Assembly: GCA_002256025.1 (NCBI GenBank)
Contig: NKIB01014145.1
Location: 1 to 46,766 of the forward strand
Source of the DNA: Asterionella formosa
Lineage: Eukaryota
DNA length: 46,766 bases
Direction: 5' to 3'
In this document: positions 14,207-44,897 of the stretch, in pieces
How the letters are laid out: each line of letters opens with the position of its first letter
Numbering within the stretch: the stretch's first letter is position 1
Notes under the pieces: generated by a model
Told to the model about the DNA's origin: nothing
Seen by the model: the letters and a program-made list of their open reading frames with translations, nothing else
Database searches by the model: none
Translations under genes and position numbers: made by a program

Positions 14207-14319
14207 TGGTACCTGGTACCAGGTAGGTGTATGGATTGGGAGAACCTTGCCTGACACGAACATCCAGCAGCCATGTACTTGTACCTGGTACCAGGTACCT
14301 GGTACCCTGGGTGGTAACA

Positions 14320-14410
14320 GGAAGTTGCGGTCATTTTGCTTAGAAACAATTGAATAAGGGATCAAGATAGCTAAACTTTTAGTTTCAGGACAATCATTAC
14401 AGCAACTTGC
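14320..14410 (-). mobile_element. ~90-bp palindromic MITE-like element, copy 3 (inverted)
   Basis: GGAAGTTGCGGTCATTTTGCT ... GATAGCTAAACTTTTAGTTTCAG ... TTACAGCAACTTGC. Confidence 0.7.
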
Positions 14411-14939
14411 TGGTTACAAGGCTTACAACCGGTACATATGTAGGGTCCTGGTTACCTGGTACCAGAACCCCTGGTACCCGGTAGTGTACCTTGTACCTGT
14501 ACCTGGTACCTGGTACCAAGGTTCCAGTTGTCACCACGCACCTGCAATTGAGATATTTAGTTTATTTCATTCTGTAGTTTCCGGTAGATGACGAGTGCCA
14601 GAAGTACCGGTACGGTACCAGGTACAATGATGCCCATACCCCCCCCCCCAACGAGATTCCAGGTATCAGCTACATATACAGGAGTACCGGTTCTCCAGTG
14701 GAGTACCAGCATTTTCAGCAATTTGGCTGCTTCAGGCTGACGGGCAGACACAGGAATTTAAACAGAAGCATACCGGTATGTTACCGGTGCCCATGCTTAG
14801 GGGGTTATCGGCTACATCAACAAAGCTTGCGCAGACACGTGAAATCGACGTTCGCCAAATCAATTTGAGCGATATGTTTCAGTCGAAAATAAGTCATTTA
14901 GAAGAACAATAGTGCAAAACGGCTTAATTTACAAGAATT

Positions 14940-18307: not shown

Positions 18308-20446
18308 CTAATTCCTTCTCATGTTGTGTTGCTCCCATGTTGTTGATGTGTCGCCAGCATAATGCTGCAGTCTAGGGCTCAATGGTGTGTTGATTGGAGA
18401 AGTTATCTTCTCACTTATTTTTGAAAGTACAGAATCATCATCGTCTGTACCAACTGTTGACGCACTGCGGAAGCTGCGTTCCCAGGATGGGATCGGGCCT
18501 AGCATCTGATGATTAAAACTTCCAACAGGAGAAATGGTGCGTTCGGCATCTGGATCGATTTGGTCCTGAGTAAAGACTCTGCATAGGGATCCTCCACCAA
18601 CAGAGCCATTCGCCGATAATCCCTCCATTCCTGCTGCCGAATGGTCTGTTCCTAAACTTGCTGAGTGAACTATTGAGTTGGCCTCTTCGTTTCTCGTGCT
18701 GAAAAACGATGGTGTATCGAAGGTATCAGGCAGCCATTGGGACTGGCACCCCAACATCTTCGATGGCCAGTCAAATTCAATGCGTCGTGGTGGCGCAGGT
18801 GGAGGCGTTCGTGCTTCATCATCTTGTTCCACCATTTGTTCATCTGGTCCAACAATTTCATCTTCACAGTCCATCATCTCCAAAAGTTCAACCTCCTGAC
18901 TCTCTTCAGTGGCACCATATGTTCCTTCTTGGTTCACAGCAGATGTATGTGGATGAATGATGTCCATTGACCCTTTTTGTGTCAGCAACATACCATCGCG
19001 GGGACCATCACTACTGTCATTTGCACAAACAGCCATGCCGTCCCAAGAACCAAGGAAGTTGGTTGCAAATTGTGACAATAATGATGGATGTTCGTGGACG
19101 GCATCGAAAGGCTGCGTTGATCCGTGAGGCTCAAGTGCATGTGACTTTGGGTCGGTGTCTGGTGCGAGTGAATTGGAATTCGAGTGGCAATGTCTGATAG
19201 GGTTGTATGAGCTGCATTGTTGTTCGGGGCGAGGACGGGACGTCGAAGCACCATACGTGCCGTAGCGGTCAGAAGCAGGACGACCATACGAATATGGCTT
19301 TTCGTGCACTGCAGCACGTCTACGGTCTTCTTCAAAAGTAACAATGCGCCTTGAACCATCGCGATGGTCAACGGTATGATCATCTGGAGGGTGATGTACA
19401 TAAGCCAAAGGCTTGGTACTACGTCGTACAGGCTTATCATGCCCATCAGAAGATCCTGAGTTGTTGCCGCCAAAACTGAAACTTGTTTTTGTCCATGCAG
19501 CAATCGACGAAGGAACGGACGTCACGAACTTAGGAATCTCGGAAAATGCCGACTTCGAGTGATTATCATCATCATGGCTTGAGTGGGAAAGACTTGGAGG
19601 AATATTGTCTTGATGTGCTTCGCTTTGCCGGGAACCTCGAGGACTTGGTGCACTATAGTGACCGTGGGTACCTCCTCTTCTTGAAGTGACGGAACCTGAA
19701 GGCGATTTGGCTTTTGCCGACGTATGACTGCTTTCGTCATAACTAAAACTTCTCTGATAGTGAGGCGAATGGGCATGCGACTCCGGCGGAGGATGAGCGT
19801 ATTCAAGGACTGCTGGTGGCGGATAGTGGCCATATGAAGAATATGCCGGATAATAACCCCAGGGTTGGGGGTAGTAATGCGCGGGTGGCGGTCCATAATG
19901 CTGCACAACATGAGCAGCTTCTTCCACCTCGACACGTTTCATCTCCGCTCGCTGGTGGTTAATCTCAACTTCAATTTCTGCTCTAATGGAAGGTGCATTC
20001 TCTCTCAACGCCTGGCTGGTCTTATCTCGTGCCTTCTCATCGCCAATGTCACACCAAAGTCCGGATTTTGAATCCCTAGTTAGAAAATGACCAGGAGGAT
20101 TTAACGCTCTAATTTCAGTGACGATGCTGTTTGCGATGAGGCGCTTTTCTCGCTTAAATCGAGCCGTCAAGTATACTCTTTTTCTTCGTTCCACGAGGTC
20201 TCGAAAGCGCTCATTTCCTGGATGAGAGTTGATTGAGCCTCCTCTTCCACAAAGGACATCATTTTCGTGCGGCTCTTTAACGTCCATCCTAGTCATGGAC
20301 GGTATCTCCTTGTCGCAATCGGAAAGGGCGCCTCCAGGGGTAACAACGACTCCTTTGGAGTAGGAGCCTTCTAGTCCGTTCGTGCTCTTTGGAGATTCCA
20401 TGGTTGAAAGGGATTCGCTAAATTTATGGTTTGAATGGGGCTCCAA
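18308..20446 (-). CDS. DUF6824-domain protein (diatom-expanded putative DNA-binding family) with long disordered C-terminus
   Basis: PHENDVLCGRGGSINSHPGNERFR...EKRLIA..IV..IR...PPGHFL...W.DIGDEKARDKTSQALRE matches DUF6824. The ORF call starts at TTG; the first ATG is near 20401. Confidence 0.85.
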   Translation of the reverse strand: MEPHSNHKFSESLSTMESPKSTNGLEGSYSKGVVVTPGGALSDCDKEIPSMTRMDVKEPHENDVLCGRGGSINSHPGNERFRDLVERRKRVYLTARFKREKRLIANSIVTEIRALNPPGHFLTRDSKSGLWCDIGDEKARDKTSQALRENAPSIRAEIEVEINHQRAEMKRVEVEEAAHVVQHYGPPPAHYYPQPWGYYPAYSSYGHYPPPAVLEYAHPPPESHAHSPHYQRSFSYDESSHTSAKAKSPSGSVTSRRGGTHGHYSAPSPRGSRQSEAHQDNIPPSLSHSSHDDDNHSKSAFSEIPKFVTSVPSSIAAWTKTSFSFGGNNSGSSDGHDKPVRRSTKPLAYVHHPPDDHTVDHRDGSRRIVTFEEDRRRAAVHEKPYSYGRPASDRYGTYGASTSRPRPEQQCSSYNPIRHCHSNSNSLAPDTDPKSHALEPHGSTQPFDAVHEHPSLLSQFATNFLGSWDGMAVCANDSSDGPRDGMLLTQKGSMDIIHPHTSAVNQEGTYGATEESQEVELLEMMDCEDEIVGPDEQMVEQDDEARTPPPAPPRRIEFDWPSKMLGCQSQWLPDTFDTPSFFSTRNEEANSIVHSASLGTDHSAAGMEGLSANGSVGGGSLCRVFTQDQIDPDAERTISPVGSFNHQMLGPIPSWERSFRSASTVGTDDDDSVLSKISEKITSPINTPLSPRLQHYAGDTSTTWEQHNMRRN

Positions 20447-22272
20447 CAGTCGTACTGTCCAGCCGCGCCACAGGTCAGTTGATTTTCAGTTGAACAGCGC
20501 TTTGGCCAATGCGAACGAGAAGAAGGTATCGAAATCAATATGATGTCCCCAGTATATCAAGGCACGGTCTTGGCAACAGTTGAGTTTGATCTTGTAATAT
20601 GGCGACGGCAACTGAGTGCACCTTTGGCGATGAAGTGGAGCCCTTAATGTAATAATCAGTGATTGAACTCTGTCGTAGTCTTACTCGCAGTATTGTTGCC
20701 GCCTTTGGGCTGTGGGAACAAGGTGGGAAACTTAAACACTTCGCTGAAATTTTCCATTTCATGCTCGGCCGGCGTACACTATACTTAATGAAGGATTGAG
20801 TGTGGAAACATTCACATAACTGTTAACGTATAATCGTTTTCAAAAAGAGAGAAATTTGCAGTGAATCCGGGTTTGTTTCACCAGTTGAGCGTGCCTGTCT
20901 CGGAGTATTTTCGGAGGCAGTTATATGCATACCGAAGATTCCCGTAGAGACAACGATGTTCATATCACTTTATCTGCCTCCAGTGGGGGTGCAAGATTTA
21001 ATTGAAACTGTTCGGGAACACAGTCTCCTGTCTGATGCACGGATGGAAAAATTGCACGACCGACTGCTGAGCAGTACGGTACCTGGTGCCCGGTATTTAC
21101 ATTGTGAGGAAAACGGGACCAGATACCCGCAGCAGATACTCCGACAACCTGTTAGGGTAACAGTTATACAGGTATCACCAGTTTGGTACCAGTACTACCG
21201 GTAGTACGGATACCTGTCCAGTTGCGTGACATTGGTAATTCAGCTGTTTTTTTAATATACCTGCCATATACCGGTAGTTAAAACCGTCTTCTACTGCAGC
21301 TCCCCAGGTACCTGGTACCTTTACCAAGTACCGGTACCCGGGACTTTTCCAAACGAGATGAAACTGTAAAAACTATTACCCGATAGTAAATTCAAATGTC
21401 CAGCCATTGGCATTTGGACTACTGGTAAAATACTTACCGGTAGAGTAACCTGAATTGCGCAACACTACCGGTATATCGAATCCATGCTACTACACATAGC
21501 TGTACAGGAATAAATGTGATCCTCAAAATTACAGTCCGCCATTATTTGTTGAATAATTTGTTCACTTCCCTTGCCAATTTTGCATCCATGTACATGAATT
21601 GACAGAAGAGGAAGAAGAATACATGCCGTGAGACTAAAAAGCTTGCCAATCTACCTCAGGATGTCTTGTATGCCAAGGATATACCATCAGACGTTGAAGA
21701 TAAGGTAGCCAAAGGAATTCTGAAAGGTTTGGACAAATTGAAAAAGACTATGGCTACATAAAATATATGTTCAGCCAGCAGGGTACCTGAGGTAGCCCTT
21801 GTAGATGCTAGTTTATAATTATTTAGCTTAGATGTTGCAGTTCATTTCTATTTATTGAACACTACAGTGTAGTTCTTGTGATCAGCTGGAGAATCCTGCA
21901 TCATGCCATCTCTGCCTTGACCATGATGAACATAGCAAATTTCTCCACAAAAAACGAGAATGATGCTTTGCTTTTGCGTAAATACATCTAACATAACATA
22001 GATAAAGCAATCGTAAAAAATAACTTGGCACATTTCTTCATGTTGTTTTAGACAACTTGCTAACAGCCCACAATTCAAGGAAGGTGTAGCAAGGTAATGC
22101 TACCATTGGATGAGTGAATTTGCAGCTGAGAAGTGCATAATCAACAAATGATTATAGTATCACACCATGACATGATAGCTACCAGTAAATACTGGTACAT
22201 GGCAACAACAGATGCAAGGAACACTGACTCGCAGACCCAAAGCAGAGATGGTGAAAGTCAAATGCAATCAAA

Positions 22273-23625: not shown

Positions 23626-24452
23626 GGTGGATCATCGACTCGTACCTATTTTTATCGCTCTGCGGGTGTTCCGTGAAGCATGGCTTCGAAAAAAACTCAT
23701 CACGTCGACGACGTCTTGGTATTGTAAATCAAATGTACTGTAAATGCATGTGATCCCTGTAACGCTTAATATTTTTGTTTTCCAATCCTATGTGTACACA
23801 TATGTATGTACCGGTATGTGACATCGTGGTTCATCTTCCGCCTGTATGATACCACGTACCGGCAGTACAGTACCTGGTACCTGCTACATAACATAGAGAT
23901 AAAATGCATCGACGTACATACGACTGCCTGTAGACTACTGATAGCTAGCTCTAGTAAGTTTAGAGTCAAACGTTGGTGCCTCGTTGGTTCCTACTGCCTA
24001 TGCATTTGTTCCACTTGGTGTTGTTATTTAAGAATAAAAGGGCTTTTGCCACAAGTTTCTCCGATTTTGCTCCTTGATGTTTTCGACATAAAAAAAGGAG
24101 TCGAGCTCGTCTGATATTAATTATCCCGGGTACTGACTAACTAACTAGGTACCTTTACGGTATACGAATTGGATGCATGGTCACCCCCTATAAATCGTGA
24201 CAATGACGGACTTTCAGCCACCCTGCTCCATACCTTACCTGTACCAGGGTACCTGGTAGTGGTACCTGATACCCTGGTGCTCATCAGAGCAAGCCATGAT
24301 CATGATAATAATAATCAAAGAATGCCGGAACTACCTTTCTTTATTTTTTTGCAATCTTGTCATCACACTTCTGATCCTTCCTATTCCTGAAGCGTAACGT
24401 CCATTTCATCTAGCTAATAATATCATATACCGGTAGACTATAGTTGCTTGTC

Positions 24453-25202: not shown

Positions 25203-26285
25203 TTAATCCTTGCTCTGTGCTGTCTTCTTGACACCCCGAAGACGTCCAGTACGTCTGGCTCCAACAAGACCACACTTACGACCAGAGGATGCATCATGAG
25301 CACAAGTAGATGGGAAACCAATGTGCTGGTGATTACCTCCTCCGTGAGGATGCTCGACTGGATTCTTGGCCACACCTCTGACCTTTGGCCAGCAGTTACG
25401 CTTGACACGGTACTTGTGGTAGGCACGCCCTGCCTTGAGGAGCGGCTTATCGGTACGTCCACCTCCAGCGACGACTCCGATCTGCGCACGAACAGCCGAG
25501 GAGACAGTCTTCTTGCCTCCGGAAGGAAGACGAAGACGGGTAGTGCCATTCTCGTCATCGTGTGTCACAACGACAGCAAAGGCACCAGATCCACGGGCAA
25601 AGGCACCACGGTCGCCTGACTTGGACTCCACATTGCACACAATGGTACCCTCTGGTACGGACGAAAGGGGCAACACGTTTCCAACAGTCAAAGTAGCTTT
25701 CTTTCCGCAATAAATGAACTGTCCAGTGTACATGCCTTCTGTGCAAAGCAAAAGCTCTGTATCACGCTTGTAACGGTAGGCATTCAAGAATTGGACCTTG
25801 GCAACAGGGGCACCTCTTCCTGGGTCATGCAGAATCTCCTTGACAACTCCGCGAATGTACCCATGCTTCTCAGCATAGTCTAGGGGTCGGAGCTTGACAG
25901 CACCCTTTCGGGTGCGGACATGCGCCTTGAAAATCGTGGACTTTCCTTGACGTTGGGCCTGTCATGTCCGTGATGTATGCATGATGCAACACAACACAAT
26001 CCATTGCATTATCCAAGTAAATGGCATCGCAGAGGAAGACGGGGAACCAAACGGATGTCAAAGGATGAACGCGTGGATCATAATGATTCAGGGCGCAGCC
26101 GCGATGCGGAAGAAACCATCATGATGAATCCACAGAAAGAAACAAGGGAAAGGAAGAACAAATCACTGTGAAAGTTAGCTAATCGATGCGGGCGGGGAGA
26201 AATTGAAGAGCAACTACTCGGTTTCTACATGCCGGGGTAAGGCTCAGCAGCAATAGCGTTAACGCACCTGAATGTACTTTCCCAT
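25203..26285 (-). CDS. RPL8: 60S ribosomal protein L8 (uL2); exons 26285-26268 and 25958-25203
   Basis: Spliced product [67 protein letters not shown]. Phase-0 intron GTGCGT..GACAG at 26267-25959 (309 nt). Confidence 0.97.
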
Positions 26286-26465
26286 GGTTAGGCCGTTTCT
26301 AAAATATAATGGTAAACAAAGCCACGTTGTCTTGTACCAGGGTCGGCGTGCGAAGGAGCAAAACCAAGAAAGTAGTAAGAAGTAAGATGACGAGGTGAGA
26401 CGGACAAGCCATCCCACTACCAGGTACCCTGGTACCTGGTATGGTACTTGTACGCTTGTATATCT

Positions 26466-26554
26466 GCAAGTTGCTGTAATTGTTCTGAAACAAATGTTTA
26501 GCTGTCTTTATCCAATATTAAATTGTTTATTCAAGCTTAATGACCGCAACTTGC
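26466..26554 (+). mobile_element. ~90-bp palindromic MITE-like element, copy 4
   Basis: GCAAGTTGCTGTAATTGTTCTGAAAC ... TTTAGCTGTCTTTATCC ... AATGACCGCAACTTGC, about 180 bp upstream of the RPL8 ATG. Confidence 0.7.
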
Positions 26555-26579: not shown

Positions 26580-26603
26580 TAGGTACCAGGTACCTGGTAC
26601 CTA
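26580..26603. repeat. Perfect 24-bp palindrome made of GGTACCW heptamers (representative of many such tracts)
   Basis: TAGGTACCAGGTACCTGGTACCTA. Similar palindromes at 14281-14298 and 33441-33462. Confidence 0.9.
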
Positions 26604-26814: not shown

Positions 26815-27777
26815 CTATTTATCAATTGGGGTACCGTTTATGTCCTGGTAACCGGATGAAGATACATTTCCCAAGTTTTCACTGCAATGTGCAACATTTG
26901 GTGATGGAGGTAGCAATGGCGAAGGAAGGTATACAGTAGCAGCATCAGGAGCAGCAGGTGAAGCCACCGGTGGTGGGTTGTATGGAAGTCTACCTGTGGG
27001 TGGGATTCGTTCTGGTATAACGTCAGGCGGTATTGAATAGGGAGGTGAAGATCGGTGCAACGAATGGTGAGTATAGGAAACATAAGGTGGCGTGTGATTT
27101 GTAGGCACTGGTACTCGATGATTGGGTGGATGAGGAGCATATGGGATTTGTCTCTTCATGTTGTATCGGAGTCGAGCTTGCTCTTCGTCGGTCTTGTTGT
27201 ATTTTCTCCATTCGAAACCAATGTGATTGAGTCGTGTAACACGTTCTGGAGCGATCCTCTTCGTCGTATTGTGTTCCAGCATGTAGCGATACGCTTGACG
27301 CTGATTCTTTACCCACGTAGCTATTTCTGGGTCTACTGCGTACCCTTGAGGTACATTGCAATTTCCATTCTCAAACTTATAATCCTGCAACCGTAGAAAC
27401 ATGATATTCCATTGGTCGTCGCGTTTGGATCCAGAGCGGATTCCGCTAACATACCGACGTCCTTTCGTCGCGACAGTTTTACGAATAGGGACTTGTTTCG
27501 TTTTCTTGGTTGGCAGAACCACTCCGTTATTGTCAGCGGCAGTCACTGCTACTCTCAATGTTGTGTCGTCAGGATCAGTATTTGTCACGGAAAAATCTTC
27601 TTCAACGCCGTCAAGATCGAGAAACTCTAGCGAATTTGAAGTAGTGACTTCGTGACGTTCATTAGGATCAACCAACAACAGTCGATTCGACGCTGCCAAG
27701 CAAAGAGTCATAAATGATGATCCATTCGTCTCTTCCTCTCTTGTTGCAGATCCTTCCCCAGATGATGAAGGTTCCAT
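26815..27777 (-). CDS. Helicase-associated (HA) domain protein with Pro-rich tail (320 aa)
   Basis: QWNIMFLRLQDYKFENGNCNVPQGY..PEIATWVKNQRQAY...ERVTRLNHIGFEW matches the HA repeat consensus. Confidence 0.9.
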   Translation of the reverse strand: MEPSSSGEGSATREEETNGSSFMTLCLAASNRLLLVDPNERHEVTTSNSLEFLDLDGVEEDFSVTNTDPDDTTLRVAVTAADNNGVVLPTKKTKQVPIRKTVATKGRRYVSGIRSGSKRDDQWNIMFLRLQDYKFENGNCNVPQGYAVDPEIATWVKNQRQAYRYMLEHNTTKRIAPERVTRLNHIGFEWRKYNKTDEEQARLRYNMKRQIPYAPHPPNHRVPVPTNHTPPYVSYTHHSLHRSSPPYSIPPDVIPERIPPTGRLPYNPPPVASPAAPDAATVYLPSPLLPPSPNVAHCSENLGNVSSSGYQDINGTPIDK

Positions 27778-28385
27778 CGTCGACTAGACTCGACTCGACC
27801 CAATGTGGACGGCGATAGGAGATATCGACAGATATGTTGGGAATACGACGAAACTGTTTTCTAGATTTTATATTTAAAATTGTTCATGAAATTGAGTTTG
27901 CACATGGATACGATACTGGTACACACTATCCCTCGTACCGGTAGAAGCAAATCGGAACCATCAACTCTCCTCAAGTTTTATTACGAGACCGAAACGTACC
28001 ACTTTGCACGTAGAAAAGATAAATCAAATATCTTTTGCTTTGTTCCATGTACGACATGCCGGTACACTTCTTGTCATCAGCCAGTATCGGAAGACAACGT
28101 ACCTGGTACCAGGGTACCTACCGTTGCCTCGAGAAGTAATAGACTTAATAAAGTCCATCAAACATGTCAGTAAAAACACCTGAAGGAATGATATTTTAAA
28201 AAGCATACATACCGGTATGCATGTGTACAGCATCATGCTCCTTCAAATACAGTGGAATGAATAATCCTTCCATGTTTCATAAATTCTTGCACGTTATTTT
28301 CCCCCGCCAACCAAACTTCAGAGTTCGTGTCCTCCTCGCGTTTATAGTAAGTAGCTGCCAACCGTGCTACTGTTACTCACATCCC

Positions 28386-29979: not shown

Positions 29980-30751
29980 GATCGAAGGAAAGGTTGTTGA
30001 TCGTTGGTTGGTTTGATCAGATTTTTTTGAGATTTTGATGCATTGGCGTTTTAATAAAGTTCATGGGCTTTCCAGTGAAGGTGATTGGGTGAATGGCTAT
30101 TATAACGGTGGGTTATTTGGCGTTAACTGTCACCTATAAACGTTTGATTCATGTCCTCCCGCAGAGCTAGACTACCGGTACTGGTAGTCATTTTAGATGT
30201 AGGTTGTGGTTCGTCGCCATATGCCAGTACTGCATGATAACGGTTTGCATCTGACGTATTTTCTAAAATAATAGACAATACAGAAGACAGACTCGAACCA
30301 AACAACACAGCCAGCAGGCAGGTATGCATAGTTGCACCAGGTAATGAGTACTCTCTCTGGTTGAAAATACGGTACCAGAGGCCAGTACCAGGTACCTGGT
30401 ACCGGTATTTCATAGTTGCATAACCGGTACAGAAGGCCAAGTAAGGTATACCTGGTATCGTCCTGGTACCAAGTACTCCCTACCAGCTACCAGGTACCTG
30501 GTACAGGATCGCTTCTGCTGGGCGGTATGCTGATACCAGTGTACTGATGATCATATAGAAATGAATTGGATATGACTGCTAGATACGAGGCGTTGTTCAA
30601 CTATGGTCATGGATCTGACCATCATAGTGATGGTGTCAAAGAAAGAAATGCGCATCACAATACAAACGATATAAAATAACAACGCTAAAATTTTATGCAA
30701 TAGTAACACCCCAACGCTAGATCCTAAATACTGCACAATCAAACCAGCATC

Positions 30752-43916: not shown

Positions 43917-44897
43917 GGTGTAGTAGAACGATGGAAAATAATGACAAAATCGAAAGCAGCGCGAGGTGACAGCCGCAAGGAAAGAAATGATTATGGTAGT
44001 ACCCTGGTACCAGGTACCACGTACCAGGGACCAGGGACCAGGTACCAGTTACCAGCTACCTGGTACCCTCGTACCACAGGGCGAGGTGAAATGGACATCG
44101 TATTTACTGGAACATGAATTACACATGTAAATATAAAAGTATATCTATCTAGTACGTATCAGGGTACGGTACTACCGTTAATCTGTGTTGGTGCTTATTT
44201 ATTTTACACGTGAAAAGTACGTGTTTGATAAGTCTGAATCAAAATTATTTCTTAAATCCTACATACATCGAGCAACGTCGTATGTAGCATTTCGGAGCAA
44301 GAAGAACCTGACAGCAACAACAGAAATGAAGGAAGCAACATATCCCCCCGGATGTGAGATACGAAGTAATGATTCTTGTTGGTGGACCGAGCAACATCGC
44401 GCACCTAATAGTGTTCCGGTACCCTATAGATTGACCAGACGAGGTGGTACCAGTACCAGCTACCACGTACTGGGTATCTTAGGGCTACTAGGTACCAGTC
44501 CCGGTAGGGTAGAAAACTGTCGTGCGTTTACGATGACGAGGCTATCCTGCAAAATCTCCTTCTTCGTAATAAGGCGAGGTTCCCGATTGTTCCTGCTCAA
44601 CTCGTCATCAGCAGCAATGCCCTACTATGAGCACCTTTTGCCACATCATTTGTCAAGATTGCTTGCACTCAGCACAATCCCGACATCGCTCATAAGAAAA
44701 AAACAACGACCAATACCTCACTTTCTAAGTTGAGAAAAAATCAGGTGCAACTAATTTTAATGTAAGGAGACGTGGAAGGTCCCTGACATGTGGCGTTCTT
44801 GCCGTGTCTCTTGCGTTCACATTTTATCTTCGTATAAATACATTTGTCTCACCCAATCAAATGGCGAACCTTGTACAGCAGTTGCTAGCATTTCACC

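Follow-up and report, generated by a model that had tools for sequence, protein, structure and literature searches.

A helix 66-like hairpin in the AG exclusion zone of a diatom uL2 first intron as a candidate for ribosomal protein feedback through splicing

Feedback of ribosomal proteins on their own expression through look-alikes of their ribosomal RNA (rRNA) sites is textbook knowledge in bacteria; in eukaryotes, to our knowledge, only a few genes of yeast and animals are known to use it. Yeast genes with self-repressed splicing include RPL30 and RPS14B, and poison splice sites that couple alternative splicing to nonsense-mediated decay (AS-NMD) are found in the ribosomal protein genes rpl-12 of C. 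elegans and RPL3 of mammals. The products of yeast RPL22B, RPS22B, RPL18B, RPL28 and RPL7B have been described as repressing the splicing of their own pre-mRNAs (PMC4838235, PMC13232506, PMC12311795), and autoregulation of yeast ribosomal protein genes by splicing inhibition or by an rRNA mimic is established (PMC7732827, PMC12311795, PMC13232506). A motif in the 5' untranslated region (UTR) of yeast RPL1B resembles the rRNA site of uL1 (Roy 2020, PMC7732827), and C. elegans rpl-10a is a ribosomal protein gene subject to AS-NMD (PMC4937301). Here we describe the first intron of the gene for ribosomal protein uL2 (RPL8) on a 46,766-nucleotide (nt) contig of the diatom Asterionella formosa (NKIB01014145.1, assembly GCA_002256025.1), the whole of which is referred to as the window. 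The intron contains a conserved hairpin that looks like the rRNA site of uL2 itself, and we lean towards the view that uL2 limits its own production via splicing through this apparent rRNA mimic.

The site of uL2 (L2/L8e) on large subunit (LSU) rRNA is the internal bulge of helix 66 (H66), at E. coli positions 1799-1800/1817-1820. Bacteria carry a class I site (GC/GUAU) and eukaryotes a class II site (A1800, U1817, A1819); the combination GA/UAAU (clone N6-15) was among the functional class II variants selected, and the top half of H66 is not conserved (Kitahara 2007, PMC1919495). A second body of work concerns introns with distant branch points, in which an AG-free stretch begins with the branch site and pyrimidine tract and the acceptor is the first AG downstream. 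AGs very near the branch site can be bypassed in such introns, and the rationale given for the design is the presence of regulatory elements between the distant branch point and the exon (Gooding 2006, PMC1431707).

Relatives of the gene were collected by scanning metagenome contigs with the exon 2 protein. Eighty loci were kept, and the upstream regions were examined for 32 of the best 33, the exception being L031, whose match is cut at the 5' end. The hairpin (coordinates of all features are collected in Table 1) is carried by the window and by 18 of the 80 loci. Every copy lies in the first intron of uL2 and is read in the sense direction; a partial copy in L011 (17.7 bits) is cut at the contig end. 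In the window it consists of a lower stem UGC/GCA, an internal loop GAUG/AUAAU, an upper stem CCA/UGG and a variable tip. In the relatives the lower stem reads (A)UGC/GCA(U), the upper stem has at least 3 bp and the tip measures from 4 to about 50 nt. The loop strands, GAUG and AUAAU, do not vary among the 18 aligned sequences. The stems are paired in 95.8% of cells, and six of eight pairs have changed on both sides, including replacement of C-G by U-A at the pair closing the lower stem in four sequences and likewise at the first upper-stem pair in four. The covariation score was reached by none of 500 shuffles, pairing fell to 17-41% when the partner columns were slid, and RNAalifold gave the same stems. 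A covariance model built from the element has no other match in the window below an expect value (E) of 1. Over the 80 loci it recovers only the training loci, L015 and the partial copy in L011, with no match in L034-L080, which are relatives at 60-73% identity. On a protein tree that is poorly resolved, the hairpin occurs throughout the group, with the deep branches L029/L030 and L023 among its carriers.

The internal loop and lower stem look like a copy of the lower half of eukaryotic helix 66, the primary uL2 site. In the Rfam LSU_rRNA_eukarya consensus this lower half reads ugc GAcg (upper stem) GgUGAC gca, with pairs 36-60, 37-59 and 39-55. A eukaryotic LSU rRNA fragment, L316, which was found with part of a primer from PMC3664796 and scores 78.6 bits against the Rfam family, reads UGC GAUG ... 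G U UGAC GCA, and the intron element reads UGC GAUG (upper stem) A UAAU GCA. The 5' strand of the element thus equals that of L316 at seven of seven positions, and its bulge core, GA/UAAU, is of class II (GA/UNAN), with a variable tip. Pair 39-55 is kept, with the C-G of the consensus replaced by U-A, while at pair 37-59 the G-C of the consensus corresponds to a G.U in the element. A pattern derived from the class II rules, TGCGAYG..TNANGCA, has a single match in 46.8 kb, at the element, with 0.29 expected by chance per window on both strands. The fragment has an odd provenance of its own: the contig in question (L316/L317) belongs to a viral collection and opens with about 120 nt of eukaryotic LSU rRNA, which makes it a chimera or else a eukaryotic sequence misassigned to the viral set. 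A second search of the viral contigs for eukaryotic rRNA returned the same contig (L316) only, and a search of the genome and viral contigs for rRNA with GCGATG near CTGCCCRGTGC gave only chance matches, in GC-rich genomes.

The hairpin lies within an AG exclusion zone of 205 nt, which is the longest AG-free run of the window on either strand (the next are 185 nt on the plus strand and 116 nt on the minus strand). Among shuffled versions of the intron, 4 of 5000 reached this length when mononucleotides were shuffled and 28 of 5000 when dinucleotides were. Zones of 154-358 nt, making up 53-98% of the intron, were found in all 16 complete hairpin-bearing related introns, a set from which L015 was dropped as a near-duplicate of L013 and L022 and L025 were left out with exon 1 outside the locus; for each of them, 0-1 of 2000 shuffles reached the observed length. 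Summed over the 16 zones there are 3846 nt and no AG, against some 247 expected from the AG density just upstream (0.064). In orthologous introns that have no hairpin the zones measure 57-70 nt (L002, L004, L008, L016, L024) and 131 nt (L010). The 185-nt run on the plus strand, at 23677-23865, lies between the serine acetyltransferase-like and ferredoxin-like genes.

The use of the branch site at the start of this zone is seen in RNA, for which the evidence consists of assembled contigs (k = 31) from four lake or freshwater runs (X1, X2, X4 and X5) of two studies. Record 23 of X4 (123 nt) contains 26176-26267 and, after a single foreign letter, returns to 26176-26205, and so describes a closed circle of 93 nt that links the first base of the intron, G26267, to 26175, the last A of CTAAC, with the branch nucleotide misread. 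The circle is best read as a lariat junction because both its ends coincide with splicing signals, and the CTAAC, which had been proposed as a consensus branch point from its letters, is a used branch site. From its branch A to the productive acceptor are 216 nt (one contig, one run), beyond the 100 nt that mark a distant branch point, and the uL2 first intron has the design of a distant branch point followed by an AG exclusion zone. The original prediction had regarded the distal acceptor as weak. It has indeed no branch site or pyrimidine tract of its own, and its apparent weakness is accounted for by the distant branch point and exclusion zone, which are conserved in relatives.

The gene model into which these features fall agrees with the prediction, including the phase 0 and the 309-nt length of the intron, as borne out by the reading of the minus strand, the Pfam match and the length of the relatives. 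The exon 2 product matches Pfam Ribosomal_L2_C (2.3e-43), and the 257 residues of the whole protein (6 + 251) are the length of most relatives. Identity amounts to 84% with the diatom Fistulifera solaris, 82% with a record named 'Cylind...' and 78% with Triparma. Relatives carry MGK(Y/I)(V/I)Q at the position of exon 1, and in the spliced mRNA contigs L005 and L027 MGKYVQ is joined directly to AQRKGK, which confirms the position of the intron. The original prediction gave 75-115 nt for the other introns of the window; a heuristic scan for introns, mostly noise, yielded two plausible ones of 75 and 116 nt. At the 5' end, the RNA contigs of X1 and X2 both stop at 26296, a weak hint (two runs, one study) of a 5' UTR of perhaps 11 nt and an exon 1 of about 29 nt; at the 3' end, one X5 contig has a stretch of T ahead of 25148, as a poly(A) tail beginning near that position would give.

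Contigs that run unbroken from exon 2 into the intron are present in all four runs and both studies. Record 1 of X1 and record 9 of X2 reach 26296, record 22 of X4 reaches 26205 and record 31 of X5 reaches 26201. One exon 2 contig, record 17 of X4, stops at 25961, the point from which spliced and unspliced sequences would differ, the CAG being common to both. Neither the joint 26268->26165 nor the productive joint is present in the contigs of the four runs, which could hardly show either because exon 1, at about 29 nt, is apparently shorter than the 31 letters needed for bridging. No contig covers 26325-26375 in any run, or anything past 26222 in X5. Mean depth in X4 is 407.7 for the contig at 25932-26205 and 54.5 for the circle. 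Contig depths cannot rank parts of a gene; the difference in depth might come from an RNA that begins beyond the proximal AG and lacks what precedes it, an interpretation that the contigs do not allow. A skip from 25436 to 25693 in an X5 contig was set aside as it looks like another organism or a repeat.

From the anatomy of the intron, the use of its branch site, the conserved and covarying hairpin and the likeness to helix 66, we infer that uL2 binds the hairpin and thereby affects splicing. In the proposed sequence of events, the lariat would form at A26175 within CTAAC, which the pyrimidine tract directly follows, and the spliceosome would then search for the first usable AG, which lies 216 nt downstream of the branch because selection would have removed every AG in between. 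Free uL2, surplus to ribosome assembly, would bind the helix 66 mimic (26031-26005) on its own pre-mRNA and hinder the selection of the distal acceptor, or splicing altogether. Three products could result: a retained-intron RNA with eight codons before its stop; a lariat intermediate that stalls or is discarded; and, only in the sub-group with a proximal AG, an mRNA spliced 9 nt past the branch that meets a stop at once. All three would be unproductive, so that the output of uL2 would fall. A uL2 feedback had been part of the original prediction and gains independent support from the conserved helix 66-like hairpin, whereas the poison acceptor on which that prediction was centred appears not to be the core of the device.

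A number of points weigh against this reading. The comparison with helix 66 is made with the Rfam consensus and one eukaryotic fragment (L316), not with the host's own LSU rRNA, and the 3' strand of the element's loop is 1-2 nt shorter than that of the rRNA (AUAAU versus G-g-UGAC). The pattern TGCGAYG..TNANGCA was written after the element was known. When the covariance model of the element was applied to L316, the best two of four matches fell on helix 66, weakly (6.0 and 5.5 bits, E 0.3-0.4). The model gave no match at H66 on the rRNA strand of E. coli 23S rRNA (L081), an outcome to be expected from the class I site of bacteria; the E. coli H66 taken from L081 agrees with the numbering of Kitahara 2007. 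The hairpin is absent from a group of related genes comprising L002, L004, L006, L008/9, L010 and L016 (support 90/87) and from L024, and is therefore dispensable; on the tree these absences look like losses. As to the RNA, the lariat-like circle is one contig in one of four runs and does not tell which acceptor it served. The retained-intron contigs are possibly an assembly artefact, a 29-nt exon 1 being clipped as a tip at k = 31, and the libraries may contain DNA, which is another possible source of intron-bearing contigs.

Extended to its full reach, the feedback model can be put forward only tentatively: uL2 may possess an ancient device in diatoms, and perhaps in sister algae, in which a copy of helix 66 lies in an AG-free search path and free uL2 acts at the choice of the acceptor, that is at the second splicing step, with a sub-group in which splicing is diverted to an AG 9-10 nt past the branch and yields a dead message.

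The proximal AG of that sub-group was the main switch in the original prediction, as a regulated poison acceptor (26167-26166) whose MGKYIQ-stop mRNA would be degraded by NMD. The branch site, AG and TGA lie exactly where they had been placed, the used branch site is just upstream, and the resulting intron would have 102 nt, an ordinary size. An early stop would follow from every such use, and in the window the TGA stands directly after the AG. This immediate stop is unremarkable, since another of the six internal AGs (26218-26217) also precedes an in-frame stop (TAG) and plain retention of the intron ends the frame at TAA 26261-26259 (GTG CGT TAA, a stop after 8 codons). An AG recurs at +9/+10 from CTAAC in 8 of 18 distinct hairpin-bearing introns (the window, L001, L012, L013 with its near-duplicate L015, L017, L018, L020 and L032), and in 8 of the 11 with an unambiguous CTAAC or CTAAT and a pyrimidine tract, L021, L022 and L025 being without. 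The letters of the spacer between branch A and AG differ widely, at most positions, among the eight, so that the AG has possibly been kept by selection; shared ancestry is the other possibility. A stop follows directly in only two of the eight (TGA in the window, TAA in L032).

We nevertheless consider it unlikely that this acceptor is the main switch. The AG is missing in the other 10 of the 18 hairpin introns, in which the last AG lies upstream of the likely branch site, and one of these introns, L022, falls among AG-bearing loci on the tree. The stretch from the branch to the proximal AG lacks a pyrimidine tract, and a distance of 9 nt is within the range in which AGs can be bypassed (Gooding 2006, PMC1431707). 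Record 22 of X4 and record 31 of X5 read straight across 26166; the absence of the junction from the contigs of the four runs counts for little, since they cannot show it. The proximal AG would therefore be an optional part of the device, which would work in its absence. In one sub-group, the poison acceptor may serve as one of the outputs. A recursive or two-step route through this AG was rejected, as the joined sequence restores a GT one base back and the frame is broken.

Less probable still is that the hairpins serve by structure alone, shortening the effective distance or presenting the distal AG for constitutive splicing with no binding of uL2 and no feedback. Structure between branch and acceptor is needed in yeast for recognition of the 3' splice site (PMC3239191), and three local hairpins are predicted in the zone of the window. 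One of them, the nearly perfect hairpin at 26073-26133, is predicted for the window species only, is not obviously conserved in relatives and may shorten the path from branch to acceptor. In L013, L017, L018 and L022 the element is followed by a second hairpin with covarying stems. Against a role as a mere spacer, the fold of the zone is no more stable than that of shuffled sequences (z = -0.35, not significant), and nor is that of the whole intron (z +0.64). A spacer would also be expected to keep its pairing rather than nine invariant unpaired or loop letters while the proteins diverge by up to 25%, and the resemblance of an element in the uL2 gene to the very site that uL2 recognises on helix 66 would be left unexplained.

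The second hairpin lies directly 3' of the helix 66-like one, at approximately L013:1046-1100, L017:518-570, L018:508-560 and L022:328-375. It has a conserved core, GATTC ATGAAAC GAATC, and an outer stem that covaries (AACCAC/GTGGTT versus GATCATC/GATGATT); the window has a different hairpin there. Between the branch site and the helix 66-like hairpin, L013, L017, L018 and L032 share a block like (A)TGACGTGG, after GATCAT-TAT, and the window reads TTTGACATCC at 26062-26046 on the minus strand; this block could be a further RNA element or a site acting at the level of DNA. The most distant carriers of the helix 66-like hairpin, L029 and L030 (75-76% protein identity), have an exon 1 reading MGKIIL and short introns of 220 and 178 nt. 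The intron of L030 contains no internal AG at all, and that of L029 has a second GAATAATGC-like half-site downstream. By their level of identity (compare Triparma at 78%), both may lie outside the diatoms.

Introns of ribosomal protein genes often host small nucleolar RNAs (snoRNAs), and an ATGATG resembling a C box stands just before the element in several relatives. It is nonetheless very unlikely that the hairpin serves another RNA-binding protein or belongs to a snoRNA-like RNA processed from the intron, as D and H/ACA boxes are not conserved in the alignments, the ATGATG of the relatives is absent from the window, conservation is limited to the hairpin of about 27 nt and its tip, with flanks that are not conserved, and Rfam 15 has no family at gathering score in the window and does not contain the element, the only hit in the intron at E <= 10 being the S4-Bacteroidia leader at chance level (15.5 bits versus a gathering score of 34.7, E = 1). 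A separate candidate for an intron-encoded snoRNA, with a C-box-like ATGATG and a CTGA around 26125-26085, was rejected as it is not conserved and matches no family.

Table 1. Features of the uL2 (RPL8) gene and its first intron in the window
Feature	Positions	Strand	Remarks
Exon 1, coding part	26268..26285	-	ATG GGA AAG TAC ATT CAG = MGKYIQ; ATG at 26285-26283
First intron of uL2	25959..26267	-	309 nt, phase 0; donor GTGCGT at 26267, acceptor AG 25960-25959
Branch site CTAAC	26174..26178	-	branch A = 26175, 216 nt upstream of productive acceptor; lariat-like circular contig
Proximal AG and TGA	26163..26167	-	AG 26167-26166, 9 nt past branch A; in-frame TGA 26165-26163; candidate poison acceptor
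AG exclusion zone	25961..26165	-	205 nt without AG, from proximal AG to productive acceptor
Pyrimidine tract	26134..26162	-	directly 3' of branch site and proximal AG, at 5' end of zone; arrangement the same in relatives
Long local hairpin (predicted)	26073..26133	-	nearly perfect, GUGGAUUCAUCAUGAUGG ... CUGAAUCAUUAUGAUCCAC; in minimum free energy and centroid folds; inside AG-free zone
Helix 66-like hairpin	26005..26031	-	covariance model 37.3 bits, E 9e-7; candidate uL2 binding site
Productive acceptor AG	25959..25960	-	gacAG|GCC; own branch motif and pyrimidine tract absent
Exon 2, coding sequence of uL2	25203..25958	-	251 residues and stop TAA 25205-25203; begins GCC CAA CGT

The neighbours of uL2 on the minus strand include open frames at 26818-27783 and 18311-20485 that carry the helicase-associated HA domain (PF03457) and DUF6824. 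The other neighbouring genes are ordinary, encoding a 2Fe-2S ferredoxin, a serine acetyltransferase, PARG, ALG11, a lipocalin and the C-terminus of a DEAH-helicase. The palindromic sequence GGTACC(A/T)GGTACC occurs in 30 copies in the window with at most one mismatch, versus 0.02 expected, and is a dispersed short repeat, mostly intergenic and present also just upstream of the uL2 gene. Examples lie at 14208-14626, 26582-26601, 30384-30505 and 44006-44067. RNA contigs originating from other places also map onto 26492-26550.

The intron offers a candidate feedback for uL2, which is among the most ancient and universal of ribosomal proteins, in an ecologically dominant group of algae, and the candidate is backed by an RNA structure with covariation, a branch point that has been mapped and a design open to testing. 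The AG exclusion design with a distant branch point, described in vertebrates, is present and conserved in diatoms. For annotation, the design accounts for an intron that is apparently three times longer than its neighbours and for its retention in transcript assemblies of many relatives. The 27-nt hairpin is also a ready substrate for the study of how eukaryotic uL2 recognises a class II site. If the feedback model holds to its full reach, this would be the first autoregulation described for uL2 in any eukaryote and the first of a ribosomal protein in stramenopiles, and a ribosomal protein would control the selection of a 3' splice site rather than the assembly of the spliceosome. A full-text literature search, supplements aside, found neither uL2 autoregulation nor a helix 66 mimic in a pre-mRNA, and no uL2 autoregulation is described in the relevant passages of PMC8047918, PMC8216456 and PMC7732827.

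Set beside helix 66 itself as described by Kitahara and colleagues (PMC1919495), the element has the class II core (G, A / U, N, A, N), the lower stem and the variable top half, with the 5' strand as in L316; it differs in the shorter 3' strand of its bulge and in its setting, a pre-mRNA intron. The intron shares with those of Gooding 2006 (PMC1431707) the branch site and tract at the start of the zone, an acceptor that is the first AG and an element between branch and exon. The cases in that paper come from alternatively spliced genes of humans and other vertebrates, whereas here the design belongs to the first intron of a ribosomal protein gene in a diatom, has been conserved in many relatives and holds an rRNA look-alike in its zone. 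As in ribosomal protein genes with AS-NMD, there is a candidate alternative splice choice giving a premature stop; unlike in those genes, the alternative junction is not observed here, and the candidate AG is 9 nt from the branch and missing in over half of the related introns.

The closest parallels are offered by feedback through RNA. Like the RPL1B motif (PMC7732827) and bacterial ribosomal protein leaders, the element would be a regulatory RNA that copies the rRNA site of the protein in both sequence and structure; the known examples lie in a UTR or leader and control translation or the amount of mRNA, and the uL2 element lies in a spliceosomal intron. The likeness to splicing autoregulation in yeast is in the conserved intron structure within the protein's own gene and in an excess of protein that is proposed, or in yeast shown, to block splicing (PMC4838235, PMC13232506, PMC12311795). 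It departs from the yeast cases in that the protein is uL2, that the element lies between branch point and acceptor and not at the 5' splice site or branch, and that it is known here from sequence. In kind, the proposed device is thus a known one, combining ribosomal protein feedback via an rRNA look-alike with regulation in the zone of a distant branch point, and uL2 would be its new member.

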